From Dictyostelium discoideum (Eukaryota), in contig CM000151.3 of the NCBI GenBank assembly GCA_000004695.1, positions 1,856,001-1,920,000 of the forward strand: a DNA stretch of 64,000 nucleotides, given 5' to 3'. The position numbers and the translations under genes are program-made. The first letter of the stretch is position 1. Each line of letters begins with the position of its first letter. This document shows, one piece after another, positions 55,544 through 61,960 of this stretch. The notes beneath the pieces are model-generated. The model was not told the origin of the DNA and made no database searches. It saw only the letters and a list, made by a program, of their open reading frames with translations.

Positions 55544-56632
55544 TTAATAAAGATTTGGATCTAAAATAGTTTCATATGGAACAAATAATGAATCAATACC
55601 ATTAGTTTCAATAAATGGAGAATCTTTGTGAATGTATCTTGGTGTCATTAGTGCCCAATCACGATTACCACAAATAATTTCATGTAATTGTTCAACTAAG
55701 TAAATAACACCATTCATTTCTTCTTCACTTATATGGCTAAGTGATTTGATTAACAATTTTTCATCATTTTGGATATCAAAAATGCATTGTTTTGCTTCTG
55801 CTATTAATTCAGAATAAACTTTTTCAAATGGTAAATTCAATTTCTTTTGGAGGATGTAAAGACAATTTTCACCAGCACAATCATGATTTAGTTCCTTTGC
55901 ATATGAAACACAATCATTAAAAATAATGATTTGTCTTGATGCTGATCTCACCATTCTATTCCAAATTGGATTTAACCAAAATGATCCATGGACATTAGTT
56001 CTAACAGCAACACTATTAACACCCACGACAAAGAATAATCCAATATTAATGGTTCTAATAAATTGATATACTTCAATTGGAACTGAATCATGATTATTTC
56101 CTTTTGATTTTTTCAATGGAATAATTGAAAAGAACCATTCTCTTAAATAATGAATAAAGATATTGAATGATTCAATTCTATGAATTGTTGGATTTAATAA
56201 TCTTTTTCTTAATATTAAAGAGTATTTATCTAATGGAGTCAAGTCATTATATTCAATATTTGAAATATATGAACTATCTTTACCAAAGATTAATATATCT
56301 TCATACTTTTTAACACAATACTGTTGTTTTTCATCAGTCATATGGTCACGTTCAAGAAAGTCATCCAAAACGAATATCCACAACATAATACTGGCGGCAA
56401 CCATACATTGTTCATAATCATACTTTGGATAGAACCATGTTACACAATTTAGAACTCCATTGGCATAAGCAAAATGTTTTTCATTTGAAGCTTCAAATAT
56501 ACCACAACTGACTCCTTCATTATAGGTATCTTTGATATGTTTATAATTTTTATTTATTGGATAAGACCATTCACTTGGGAAATAAAATTTTTTTAAGCTA
56601 TATAACGGTTTTTCAAGATTAATAGTTTCCAT
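55544..56632 (-). CDS. Class I terpene synthase (Dictyostelium TPS-type, microbial-like isoprenoid synthase fold).
   Basis: 362-aa single-exon ORF. Aspartate-rich motif FVLDDFLERD. NSE/DTE-type second metal-binding motif IIFNDCVSYAKELNHD. The length and helical pattern are typical of microbial-type sesquiterpene synthases. Confidence 0.75.
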   Translation of the reverse strand: METINLEKPLYSLKKFYFPSEWSYPINKNYKHIKDTYNEGVSCGIFEASNEKHFAYANGVLNCVTWFYPKYDYEQCMVAASIMLWIFVLDDFLERDHMTDEKQQYCVKKYEDILIFGKDSSYISNIEYNDLTPLDKYSLILRKRLLNPTIHRIESFNIFIHYLREWFFSIIPLKKSKGNNHDSVPIEVYQFIRTINIGLFFVVGVNSVAVRTNVHGSFWLNPIWNRMVRSASRQIIIFNDCVSYAKELNHDCAGENCLYILQKKLNLPFEKVYSELIAEAKQCIFDIQNDEKLLIKSLSHISEEEMNGVIYLVEQLHEIICGNRDWALMTPRYIHKDSPFIETNGIDSLFVPYETILDPNLY

Positions 56633-56961
56633 TTTTTGATTTTTAATTTGAAATGATTTTTTTTTTTTGTTAAAATTTATGTTTAAATATTTTTTTTTTT
56701 GTGGAATAATAATAATTTTTTTTTTTGCCTTTACTTGAATAGATTAATTATTATTTATTATTTTTTTGATTTTTGTGTGTTAATAATTGATTAAATTTTT
56801 TGTGGTTAAAAAAAACCGTTTTGGGGCTATTTTTAGAATTATTATATCAAATTTCCTTATTCCAACAAATGGTAATAAAGAATATAATTACAATAATAAG
56901 TGGATAAATACTAAATAAATGCATTTAATTTTTTTTTAACCTTTTTTTAACCTTTTTTTAA

Positions 56962-57019
<58 letters not shown>

Positions 57020-57149
57020 CCACTTTTTTTTTAATATAAATTTGCAAATCATTTTTTATTCACTTAAAATTTTTTTTTTTTTTTTTTTTTTATTTTTTTT
57101 ATTTTTTTAATTTTTTTTAATTGGATAAAAAATTAAAAAATATTAGTAA

Positions 57150-57832
57150 ATTATTTTCTAATAATTAATTTTGATTTGAATTCTAATGGGCATAATGTTT
57201 TTGTTAAATAACCATTTTCATCATTTAATTGGGTGGTGGTTCTTTCAAATTTAAATGTTTTATATAATTTAGTTGATACCAAAAACATTATTGAATCAGC
57301 GACATTGGCACCAGGACATTGACGTAAACCAGATGAAAAAGCGCATTGACCAATATTTGATTCATCTTTTGATAAAAAGCGATCAGGATTGAAGATGTTA
57401 GGTTCACTGCTTTCAATATTACTTCTATTACATCCATATAAATTTGGAATTACTTGAGTATTTTTTGGAATAAATATATCATCAATAACAATATCATCAG
57501 TACATATATGTGGTAATGCAAATGGTGCTGCTATATATATATATATTGATTTTTTGAAAATATTTTCAGTAATTATTTCAATAAATATATTATGTATAAT
57601 AAATTATAATAATGTATAATAAATATTTACGTGGTGAAATTCTTAAAGTTTCTTTAATAAATGAATTTAAATATGGGAATTGTAATTTATCCTTATGTAA
57701 TGGATGGTTTGGTGTGTTTATTTCAAAAAATAATTTCTCTTGAATATTTGGATAATTTGTTAAATATAATAACAACCAATCCATAGTTGTACTTGTTGTA
57801 ACTTTAAAAAAAAAATTAGAATAGTCAATTTT

Positions 57833-57879
<47 letters not shown>

Positions 57880-58575: not shown

Positions 58576-58884
58576 ATATCTATTTTTAAAATTAACATTT
58601 TTGTTAACCACTTAAAATTAATAACTATTTTTTCAATATTGTTGGATCTAATATATTTGTTATAATATAATCTATACTTACATTTATTATAACATAATGA
58701 GTTTTTATTTTTATCTTAAAAAGGCTTAAATATTAAAACAAATTCTTTTGAACAAAAATACAACTTGTTTTAAAGATACATTAACATGCATTTGGTGTAT
58801 AAAAAAAATTATAAATTATAATCCAAACATAAAAACAAAAGAGATTATATTCTTTGTGTTGGGAAAAAAAAAAAGATACCCACA

Positions 58885-58926
<42 letters not shown>

Positions 58927-59941
58927 AAAAAACATTAATTATTTGAAATATAAAAAAAACACCACAACCTGTAGTGTTTGGTGTGGAAAAAATAAAAATA
59001 GAAAAAATAAAATCAATTTAAAAATTAAAAATAAACACTTTTGTTTAAATAAAATGATGATATAATATCAATGATGAAAAATAATTACCAAATGTAACTA
59101 GACTTCTCTTAAATATTACATCAGCTGATATTCCTTCAAACACCATGGTGTTTTACAATATAGCTTTTGGAAATGGGTTCAATTCCACCAGGTAATTCAA
59201 TTAAACAATAAAGTTATTATCATTAATAGCGGTACAATTACAATCAGTGGTTAATTTGGTACAGCAAAAAGATATGCCACTCGCAAAGATTCCAGTTTTC
59301 ATTTACTATGCGGATAGTAAGACTCCTTTCGTCCCCACCCTTACAGATACAACCGATTCATATTCATTCTTTAATCCTGCAACTATTTGATTACAGCACT
59401 TCCAACTGGTTAGGGTCATGAGGTTGAATCAAACATCAGTAATTCTAAAAACCTACACTGCTCCATCTTTTATCACCGGTGAAGAAACATGTAATGATGT
59501 ACCAAGTCTTTCAGTAGACACATATGTCATTGTTAATACTGAAGAAAATAGTCCAAATACAGGTGAACCAGTTATTGTTATGTTTCCATTCAATTCTACT
59601 CTACATTGAAATTATTGCCATTTCAACAACTCCAATAGGATCAATTACATTACTGATAGCGTGCTTAATTTTAAATTTCAAATAACCTCATCCAAATAAT
59701 GAAATAGAGTATCTGTGTGAACCCGATTTATTTCGGATTATTATTATTATTATTATTATTTTTTTTTTTTGGATATCCGACACATCATTTTATCTTAGAT
59801 ATAACTTTAATAGATAATTTAAAAAAATATAAAATATCTATCTGGGGGCAAATATAGATAATTTAAAACCCTTTTATTTTAATTGTATTTTTAGCAATTT
59901 TTTTTTTTTTTTTTTTTTTTTTTAAATAAAATATTAGTAAA

Positions 59942-60619
59942 TTATTTTCTAATAATTAATTTTGATTTGAATTCAAATGGGGATAATGATCTTGTAAAAT
60001 GACCATTTTCATCATTTAATTGAGTAGTGGTTCTCTCAAATTTAAATGTTTTATATAATTTAGTTGATACCAAAAACATTATTGAATCAGCGACATTGGC
60101 ACCAGGACATTGACGTGAACCAAATGAAAAAGCGCATTGACCAATATTTAATTCATCTTTTGATAAAAAGTGATCAGGATTGAAGACGTTAGATTCACTG
60201 CTTTCAATATTACTTCTATTACATCCATATATGTTTGGAATTACTTGAGTATTTTTTGGAATAAATATATCATCAATAACAATATCATCAGTACATATAT
60301 GTGGTAATGCAAATGGTGCTGCTATATATATATGGATTTTTTAAAAAAATAAAAATTTTCAGTAATTATTTCAAAATGTATAATAAATTATAATAATGTA
60401 TTATAAATATTTACGTGGTGAAATTCTTAAAGTTTCTTTAATAATTGAATTTAAATATGGGAATTGTAATTTATCCTTATGTAATGGATGGTTTGGTGTG
60501 TTTATTTCAAAAAATAATTTCTCTTGAATATTCGGATAATTTGTTAAATATAATAACATCCAATCCATAGTTGTACTTGTTGTAACTTTAAAAAAAAATT
60601 AGAATCATAAATTTTAATT

Positions 60620-60651
<32 letters not shown>

Positions 60652-61960
60652 AAAAAAGAAAAAATAAATATTAGATTTACCTATACCTGCAACAATAATA
60701 TCGAAACATATATATGGAAGATCAGTTATTTTAATTAAATTTGATGTATCCTTTCGAATTTCACTAATGAAATATTCTAAAAAACATTTTGGTTCACTAT
60801 TATTTAATAAAAAAAAAAAAAAAAATAAAATTTAGTATTTTAATTAAACACATACTAGAATTATAACTTATACATACTTTCCATCATCATCATCATCACT
60901 AATATTTTTTAAAATATTATCAATTAATGGTTGAAAGAAATTTAAACAATTATTATACTCTTTTTCAATTTCTTTATAATTATTAAATGGTTTTAAAATT
61001 GGGATAAAATCTGCTGGTTGTTTTGCTAAATATTCAAATAATTTATTATAGCTTTGGATAAATGAATAAAATTCTTTTGATAATAAATTATCATCATATT
61101 CAAATGATACACCAAATAGAAATCTATATAAAATATTTAATAAAATTCTTTTAAAAATTGGACCCATATCCTTTTTTTTTTTTTTTTTGTGAAAAATTAA
61201 ACTAATAATCAATTATATATATATATATTTATTTATTTATTTATTTATTTTTTTCAAAAATAATAAAAACTTACAATATTATTATCTTGATTTATTTTTT
61301 TTAATAAATATTCTTCAGCTTTAAAATATTCATTATAAAATAATTCTTCCATTTGACGAGATTTTGATTTAGTAATTGAACTACTTAAAATATCTTTTAA
61401 TTTTCTCCAATGAGAACCATTACCAAATCTAATTTATATATATTTAATTAATTAATAATTTTTTTTAATACTAAATATTTATTTTTAAAGTTATATACTT
61501 ACATAATACCTTGATATTTTCCCATGTAATAAAAAGATGGTAAATGAAATCTTTGTGAAAAAAAGGTTGGATTGTCACGAAATGATTTTTGTAAAAAATT
61601 GATATCATTAATTACAATTGTATCAATTGAACCCATTTTCAATGAAAATACTTTTCCGTATTTATCTGATAATTGTTTGAATGATAAGTGAGGATATTTT
61701 AAACTTAATTTGTAAAGGCTACCAATAATAGGTAATATTAATGGACCACTTGGAAATTTACATTTTAATTTATTTTCTCCAACTAATAATGATGAAGGTA
61801 CTGCTCTATTAAAAAACTTTTTAAATTAAAAATTTTATTAATATTATTTTTTATTTAAAAATTTTATTAATATTATATTATATTATATTAATGCTTACTT
61901 TTATATTTATTAAATATATATATATAAATAATCCTAAAATAATTCCTAATATCATTTTTT
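59942..61960 (-). CDS. Cytochrome P450 monooxygenase (copy B, apparently intact; about 7 exons on the minus strand; boundaries approximate).
   Basis: Exons read (5' to 3' on the minus strand): MILGIILGLFIYIYLINIK (membrane anchor); AVPSSLLVGENKLKCKFPSGPLILPIIGSLYKLSLKYPHLSFKQLSDKYGKVFSLKMGSIDTIVIND; FGNGSHWRKLKDILSS; DMGPIFKRILL...FIPILKPFNNYKEIEKEY; NEPKCFLEYFISEIRKDTSNLIKITDLPYICFDIIVAGI; VTTSTTMDWMLLYLTNYPNIQEKLFFEINT...IKETLRISP (ExxR); PAPFALPHICTDDIVIDDIFIPKNTQVIPN...FNPDHFLSKDELNIGQCAFSFGSRQCPGANVADSIMF...KLIIRK* (haem Cys loop). Introns have GTAAGT/GTATGT/GTAAAT donors. Confidence 0.6.

Follow-up and report, generated by a model that had tools for sequence, protein, structure and literature searches.

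Comparative analysis of the putative DdTPS3-CYP515A1 terpene synthase-P450 cluster of Dictyostelium discoideum and its apparent partial decay in strain AX4

Introduction

Few specialised-metabolism gene clusters are found beyond plants, fungi and bacteria, and in social amoebae a single pair consisting of a terpene synthase (TPS) gene and a cytochrome P450 (P450; CYP in gene names) gene has been validated. This is DdTPS8-CYP521A1, the only member to have been confirmed biochemically among three TPS-CYP neighbour pairs of Dictyostelium discoideum (PMC6524965); it sets a microbial-type class I sesquiterpene synthase beside a microsomal-type P450. The same combination in the same organism is found at the locus considered here, in which the terpene synthase gene DdTPS3 is accompanied by the pseudogene CYP515A2_ps and the intact P450 gene CYP515A1. 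It lies in a 64-kb stretch of chromosome 2 of the D. discoideum laboratory strain AX4 (contig CM000151.3, positions 1,856,001 to 1,920,000), hereafter the window. Both DdTPS8-CYP521A1 and DdTPS3-CYP515A1 are listed as TPS-CYP clusters in PMC6524965, the latter, there called a "putative TPS-CYP cluster", having DpTPS5-CYP515A1_Dp of D. purpureum as its orthologous pair (Chen et al. 2019, eLife). The naming in that paper is not consistent throughout: 'CYP512A1' and 'CYP5121A1_Dp' stand for CYP515A1 and CYP515A1_Dp, the Discussion using CYP515A1, and 'DpTPS11' and 'DdTPS5/DdTPS4/DdTPS12' are given to the wrong species.

The enzyme itself has been characterized in vitro, where recombinant DdTPS3 converts farnesyl diphosphate to two unidentified major sesquiterpenes and geranyl diphosphate to linalool (PMC6524965, PMC6156593), and DpTPS5 of D. 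purpureum yields major products with the same mass spectra as those of DdTPS3 (PMC6156593). The arrangement of DdTPS3 and CYP515A1 is already published and so not new, and recognising the locus adds nothing in itself. What the present study contributes is comparative data on the linkage, on the decay of the locus in AX4 and on a conserved third gene, and these data strengthen the case for a genuine TPS-P450 linkage.

Results

An earlier note on the window, made from its letters, had placed here a class I terpene synthase with a DDxxD motif and an NSE motif, about 500 bp from two same-strand P450 genes of which one was intact and the other a truncated pseudogene, and had proposed the group as a candidate tailoring cluster on the analogy of the pair characterised in Dictyostelium, a genus it rightly took as the setting. 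This account is borne out by the gene models, the domain matches and the published designation of the locus (PMC6524965), save that the aspartate-rich motif is strictly DDxxE. The DdTPS3 reading frame is residue for residue that of XP_644874.1 / Q86II4 'Terpene synthase 3' (TPS3_DICDI) by exact-sequence look-up, and it matches Pfam PF19086 (Terpene_syn_C_2) over residues 82-279 (E=3.8e-12, 46.8 bits with a cut-off of 23.7). Its metal-binding motifs are VLDDFLE at residues 88-94 (DDFLE at 90-94) and NDCVSYAKE at residues 239-247, and across the seven DdTPS3 orthologs and paralogs aligned both DDFLE and NDCVSYAKE are invariant, as is a C-terminal R332-Y333 pair. The closest solved structure by sequence search is that of the fungal presilphiperfolan-8-beta-ol synthase BcBOT2 (8h6q, E=1.5e-6). 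The earlier note had also considered that the synthase might be inactive or a pseudogene, but the ratio of nonsynonymous (dN) to synonymous (dS) divergence, omega, is 0.13-0.18 against four orthologs and the literature reports activity in vitro; DdTPS3 is an intact gene under strong purifying selection. A GC content of about 20% and poly-Asn coding tracts are seen across the window.

The intact P450 (copy B) has a clean reading frame of 494 amino acids (aa) in seven exons, and the spliced protein is exactly Q86A22 'Probable cytochrome P450 515A1' by the same kind of look-up, the gene identifier DDB_G0272704 being given in the supplement of the eLife paper (PMC6524965). Pfam p450 (PF00067) is matched at E=1e-87 and the expected P450 motifs are present, namely ETLR (ExxR), the heme loop FSFGSRQCPG and AGIVTT in the I-helix, together with an N-terminal hydrophobic segment typical for enzymes anchored in the endoplasmic reticulum. 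Omega is 0.28-0.39 for CYP515A1 against its orthologs and 0.24-0.39 over the intact P450s as a whole, all of which are under moderate purifying selection. The nearest solved relatives are CYP2B4 and other CYP2-clan enzymes (E=1.5e-43). A CYP51 identity, which the earlier note had named as something that would speak against tailoring, or another housekeeping identity is ruled out by these structural relatives and by the existence of a separate D. discoideum CYP51 gene, DDB_G0279403. All three genes are on the minus strand; from the ATG of DdTPS3 (56632) it is 518 bp to the stop codon of copy A (57151) and 3309 bp to that of CYP515A1, the latter being a distance stated as 3148 bp in the published description of the intact CYP as tail-to-head to DdTPS3 (PMC6524965).

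Linkage of TPS and P450 is kept in four other genomes (loci L001-L004). D. discoideum ACTFIR (L004, GCA_054859385.1) has, in order, Ifi-6-16, two P450 genes of 492 aa each, an ependymin-like gene (-), the TPS (+), an N6-adenine methyltransferase, NAT9, an unnamed gene, Fra10Ac1 and PhyH, and D. cf. discoideum ACTFIY (L001, GCA_054859205.1) repeats this order with P450s of 500 and 504 aa. In D. citrinum (L003) one P450 of 490 aa is followed by the ependymin-like gene (-), the TPS (+), two extra genes and then the block running from the N6-adenine methyltransferase to PhyH. The D. purpureum locus (L002) reads TPS4 (+), ependymin-like gene (-), TPS5 (+) and P450 (+, 480 aa), and the spacing of 612 bp between TPS5 and the P450 matches the published value. 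Orthology of the D. purpureum P450 was assessed by tblastn on its own locus, the word-indexed homologue search not having returned it; its identity with CYP515A1 is 51-67% per exon, as against 37% for the paralog group that came next among the search results. In a tblastx comparison of the D. purpureum locus with the whole window, substantial similarity was found in the TPS and P450 genes only. The pair has thus stayed linked in D. purpureum although gene order and the available flanks differ, and its linkage has survived rearrangement. A further CYP515A-like paralog sits two genes downstream of 3-hydroxy-3-methylglutaryl-CoA (HMG-CoA) synthase, of the mevalonate pathway, in D. dimigraforme (L007 5355-11716) and D. 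citrinum (L008 5376-11961); the homologue search returned no ortholog of it at about 60% identity from D. discoideum.

The two P450 copies of the window are direct repeats about 2.79 kb apart with 93-99% identity, 93.4% by blastn of copy A 58400-57137 with copy B 61188-59928. Copy A, already named CYP515A2_ps in PMC6524965 and described there as a partial CYP gene immediately beside DdTPS3, is a dead P450 fragment. A poly(A) tract joins its upstream region straight to exon 4, about 830 bp with exons 1-3 having been deleted, so that the 5' leader, exons 1-3 and introns of copy B (62018-61189) have no counterpart. What is left carries a nonsense codon in exon 4 (GAA to TAA at 58286-58284) and, in exon 5, a 1-bp deletion with a frameshift in the I-helix and loss of the GT donor site. 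Consistent with this, omega between copies A and B is 0.79 at a dS of 0.034, as against 0.24-0.31 for the intact P450 pairs of other strains. An assembly artefact as the cause of the truncation was rejected because an independent D. discoideum assembly (L005) shows the same architecture, being collinear with window positions 48000-64000 at 99.1% in a single alignment. Since the deletion joins two poly(A) tracts, it may have been homopolymer-mediated. Homopolymer tracts of 17-60 nucleotides, poly(A) or poly(T), are found in promoters and introns at 62023-62080, 61172-61188, 58388-58425 and 56950-57020, and differences in length between the window and L005 may also sit in such tracts.

Continuity of the flanks identifies copy B with the distal and copy A with the TPS-proximal copy of L001, and the positional orthologs of copy A are full length in both L001 and L004. 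Even so, the tandem copies of any one genome are more alike (dS 0.034-0.116) than positional orthologs from different genomes (window 57151-58382 and 59942-61170; L004 3276-8088; L001 6754-12061), which suggests gene conversion between the tandem copies, repeated duplication being the less likely explanation. Divergence between the AX4 copies is uneven, with 2 of 293 positions differing in exon 4 and 17 of 380 in exon 7. The second P450 of D. cf. discoideum ACTFIZ (L006 13695-14809) keeps exons 1-4 without exons 5-7 and adjoins a peptidyl-prolyl isomerase gene. This truncation, at the opposite end from that in AX4, is an independent loss of the redundant copy, apparently at a rearrangement point that parts the P450 genes from the ependymin-like gene and the TPS.

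Each of the five non-AX4-type genomes examined (L001, L002, L003, L004 and L009) has a gene for a secreted ependymin-like protein that lies directly upstream of the TPS on the opposite strand, head-to-head with it. It has two exons and an N-terminal signal-peptide-like segment, and PF25544 ('Ependymin domain, amoebozoa') is matched at E=7.5e-21 and 4.3e-24. Four loci have an intact copy, at an intergenic distance of 552-1377 bp from the TPS; the TPS-adjacent copy of L001 is a fragment. In AX4 the segment of about 1.5 kb that carries the gene is deleted, L001 12150-13680 having no counterpart between window positions 57069 and 56917. With the loss of exons 1-3 from copy A and an insertion between the P450 copies, this makes three derived lesions of AX4 in comparison with L001 and L004. 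Searches of the whole window with two ependymin-like proteins (tblastn) gave no match even at E<=10, tblastx of the window with L001 left the ependymin-like genes of the latter unmatched, and no close AX4 ortholog of the protein was found in a search of 5.8 billion proteins. Both the ependymin-like gene and a functional TPS-proximal P450 are missing in AX4 and ACTFIT, and both are present in ACTFIR and ACTFIY. The ependymin-like protein had no match among the sequences of solved structures.

Between the two P450 copies, the window carries a decayed 3'-end fragment of a colossin-like gene. Exhaustive phmmer search showed 88% identity of the fragment with the C-terminus of a homologue (P0029) that has SdrD_B domains at E=2e-41, and BLASTP with the same homologue gave E=2e-54 over 59268-59684; by itself the fragment has no Pfam match. 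AX4 and L005 carry an insertion of about 870 bp (about 58750-59620) that L001, L004 and L006 lack. The insert is a foreign gene fragment outside the pathway. That it might be a remnant of the ependymin-like gene was considered and rejected, tblastn, tblastx and Pfam having given no match and phmmer having pointed to the colossin-like 3' fragment. L001 and L006 each have a giant gene (4541 aa and 4484 aa, respectively) a few kb upstream of their P450s, which is possibly colossin-like.

The earlier note had also remarked on a PhyH-type dioxygenase gene about 4 kb away, as either an additional tailoring enzyme or simply unrelated. The gene is there, with its PF05721 match, 4.1 kb beyond the 3' end of DdTPS3, and it is the second option that fits the comparative data. 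Four genes intervene (an N6-adenine methyltransferase, NAT9, a 253-aa protein and a FRA10AC1 homolog), and this block travels together with PhyH in L001, L003, L004, L005 and L009, two further genes separating it from the TPS in D. citrinum. There is no PhyH gene in the 15.7-kb D. purpureum locus (L002), the contig of which ends 2.2 kb past the P450.

On the far side of the P450s a Gly/Ala-rich reading frame of 171 aa (62796-63311, +), flanking them in a position kept in L004 and L005, matches the interferon-induced 6-16 family weakly and below threshold (PF06140, E=1.4e-4, 22.1 bits with a cut-off of 29.1). Scans of 48-64 kb for tRNA genes and Rfam families found none. Coordinates are collected in Table 1.

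Table 1. Coordinates at the DdTPS3-CYP515A1 locus (window positions unless another locus is named)
Feature	Position	Strand	Description
PhyH-family dioxygenase gene	50038..51405	-	two exons; PF05721 E=3.5e-8
DdTPS3 (DDB_G0272706, UniProt Q86II4)	55544..56632	-	single-exon class I (microbial-type) terpene synthase, 362 aa
CYP515A2_ps (copy A)	57151..58382	-	pseudo-exons 4-7 of a P450
CYP515A2_ps pseudo-exons	exon 4 58382-58091; exon 5 58009-57898; exon 6 57801-57631; exon 7 57530-57151	-	exon-by-exon projection from copy B
Upstream (promoter) region of copy A	58384..58721	-	86.8% identical to 62019-62352 upstream of copy B
Fragment of SdrD_B-repeat (colossin-like) gene	59091..59684	+	decayed 3' end; GC 30-39%; three in-frame stops
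CYP515A1 (copy B; DDB_G0272704, UniProt Q86A22)	59942..61955	-	seven exons, 494 aa, intact
CYP515A1 exons	61955-61899; 61816-61503; 61428-61275; 61170-60878; 60796-60681; 60585-60415; 60321-59942 (incl. stop codon)	-	splice model
Upstream (promoter) region of CYP515A1	62019..62352	-	long poly(A)/poly(T) tracts; one is the deletion breakpoint in copy A
Ependymin-like gene, L004	8493-9276		
Ependymin-like gene, L001	12758-13537		
Ependymin-like gene, L003	8842-9448		
Ependymin-like gene, L002	7895-8623		
Ependymin-like gene, L009	605-1372		

Discussion

Roughly 12,500 genes are present in D. discoideum, of which 54 are CYP and 9 are TPS genes, and on these counts chance alone would place a CYP within two genes of about 0.16 TPS genes. 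The observed number is three, so that TPS-CYP adjacency would be about 20-fold over-represented in this species. Together with the linkage retained in relatives, the purifying selection on both genes, the precedent of DdTPS8-CYP521A1 and the matching product spectra of DdTPS3 and DpTPS5, this inclines us to the view that CYP515A1 acts on a DdTPS3 product. The locus would then be a small sesquiterpenoid gene cluster, partly decayed in AX4, in which CYP515A1, working with a P450 reductase (RedB, for example), would oxidise part of the DdTPS3 sesquiterpene pool during multicellular development to a less volatile or degraded derivative, in parallel with DdTPS8-CYP521A1. The following history of the locus is proposed. 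Before D. discoideum and D. purpureum diverged, a TPS, a CYP515A gene and, head-to-head with the TPS, a gene for a secreted ependymin-like protein would already have been present; a tandem duplication of the P450 would then have followed in the D. discoideum complex, with the copies exchanging sequence by gene conversion; and in the AX4 lineage the ependymin-like gene would have been lost, exons 1-3 of the proximal P450 deleted between two poly(A) tracts, and the colossin-like fragment gained.

Several observations weigh against such a functional cluster. The three genes run tail-to-head on one strand, with no head-to-head arrangement and no shared promoter, and 3.3 kb containing a pseudogene and a foreign gene fragment separate DdTPS3 from CYP515A1. 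Strain AX4 has lost the TPS-proximal P450 copy and the ependymin-like gene and tolerates their absence. In ACTFIZ two unrelated genes and then the end of the contig come after the P450 pair, and the ependymin-like/TPS pair starts another contig. No TPS lies within 10 kb, in either direction, of the CYP515A-like paralog of D. citrinum and D. dimigraforme (61-63% identity to CYP515A1). CYP515A1 is not among the CYPs tabulated as co-expressed with DdTPS8 (PMC6524965), although this has no bearing on TPS3. In the literature searched, neither CYP515A1 nor DdTPS3 is mentioned besides Chen et al. 2019, and no experiment with CYP515A1 on a DdTPS3 product is reported. The sesquiterpenes of DdTPS1-4 are reportedly detectable in the AX4 headspace or volatile bouquet (PMC6524965). 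For DdTPS8 it was the missing product that gave the key clue, whereas the DdTPS3 products are present in the volatiles (PMC6524965). Their presence in the headspace implies that at most part of the TPS3 pool is consumed and argues against complete conversion.

Much of this is what would be seen if the genes were adjacent without sharing a pathway, the DdTPS3 volatiles being released as such, the substrate of CYP515A1 being unrelated, and the linkage persisting only through the proximity of the genes and the kinship of the species. We regard this as a possible explanation, though not the favoured one. It would accommodate the reported headspace products, the tail-to-head layout across a pseudogene and a foreign fragment, the CYP515A-like genes without a TPS in L007 and L008, and a link that is loosened or broken in ACTFIZ, but it does not account well for D. 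purpureum keeping the linkage despite a different order and with no other gene in common with the 64-kb window. Nor does it sit easily with the excess of TPS-CYP adjacency in a genome in which one such pair has been validated, and partial conversion by a P450 is itself compatible with some product escaping as volatile. An ancestral cluster that is defunct in AX4, with tailoring formerly done by the TPS-proximal P450, the ependymin-like protein or both, and CYP515A1 no substitute for them, seems improbable. The pattern of loss in AX4 and ACTFIT and retention in ACTFIR and ACTFIY is in keeping with it and it would account for unmodified DdTPS3 products in the AX4 headspace, but the P450 copies within each genome are very similar (dN 0.014-0.024), so that functional divergence is unlikely. 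A single copy moreover suffices in D. citrinum and D. purpureum, the independent truncation of the second copy in ACTFIZ suggests redundancy, and CYP515A1 is still constrained in AX4 at an omega of about 0.3.

More improbable still is an extended cluster in which the PhyH-type dioxygenase is a second tailoring enzyme. Fe(II)/2-oxoglutarate dioxygenases of the PhyH family are common tailoring enzymes, and the gene is within 4.1 kb of the TPS in a neighbourhood kept through the D. discoideum complex and D. citrinum, but it is set apart from the TPS by four unrelated conserved genes, with two more in D. citrinum, and it was not found in the D. purpureum locus as far as that contig extends. On this synteny the PhyH gene was rejected as a cluster member, and it most likely belongs to the neighbouring gene block, unrelated to the cluster. 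A different enlargement is doubtful but carries somewhat more weight, namely that TPS3, a CYP515A P450 and the secreted ependymin/LolA-fold protein (PF25544) may together form the actual unit, a module of three genes. Proteins of the ependymin/LolA-fold superfamily bind hydrophobic ligands and include the biosynthetic enzyme VioE, which makes the role of a terpenoid carrier or accessory enzyme conceivable for the ependymin-like protein; it could be an extracellular carrier or presenter of terpenoids, or an accessory enzyme, although this is purely our inference. If such a module exists, volatile profiling of AX4 under-reports the output of this cluster in wild Dictyostelium.

As one of the two remaining published candidates in D. 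discoideum, DdTPS3-CYP515A1 is a reasonable target for pathway discovery. Given that AX4 carries a degraded version, in which one P450 is dead and the conserved ependymin-like partner deleted, wild strains or D. purpureum would be the better choice for functional work, or at least for a check on it.

Among known systems, the botrydial cluster of Botrytis, built around BcBOT2, follows the same logic as that proposed here, with a class I cyclase followed by P450 oxidation, but its synthase is very distant in sequence from DdTPS3, and fungal clusters usually hold several P450s along with tailoring and regulatory genes that are demonstrably co-regulated. DdTPS8 and CYP521A1 are nearer in kind but are head-to-head at 685 bp, tightly co-expressed, and validated both biochemically and by knockout, where DdTPS3 and CYP515A1 are tail-to-head at 3.3 kb and putative; the product of DdTPS8, discoidol, is absent from the headspace, whereas the DdTPS3 products are emitted. 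Closer again is DpTPS4/DpTPS5-CYP515A1_Dp of D. purpureum (Chen et al. 2018, 2019), with an orthologous TPS (77% identity) and an orthologous CYP515A P450 on the same strand. Unlike in AX4, the P450 there is downstream of the TPS (612 bp), it is the TPS rather than the P450 that is duplicated, and the ependymin-like gene is kept between TPS4 and TPS5. The locus of the wild strains (L004 and L001) is syntenic with that of AX4 over the whole 16 kb at 87-93% nucleotide identity, and differs from it in having two full-length P450s (492 and 492 aa in L004, 500 and 504 aa in L001), the ependymin-like PF25544 gene and no colossin-like insert.

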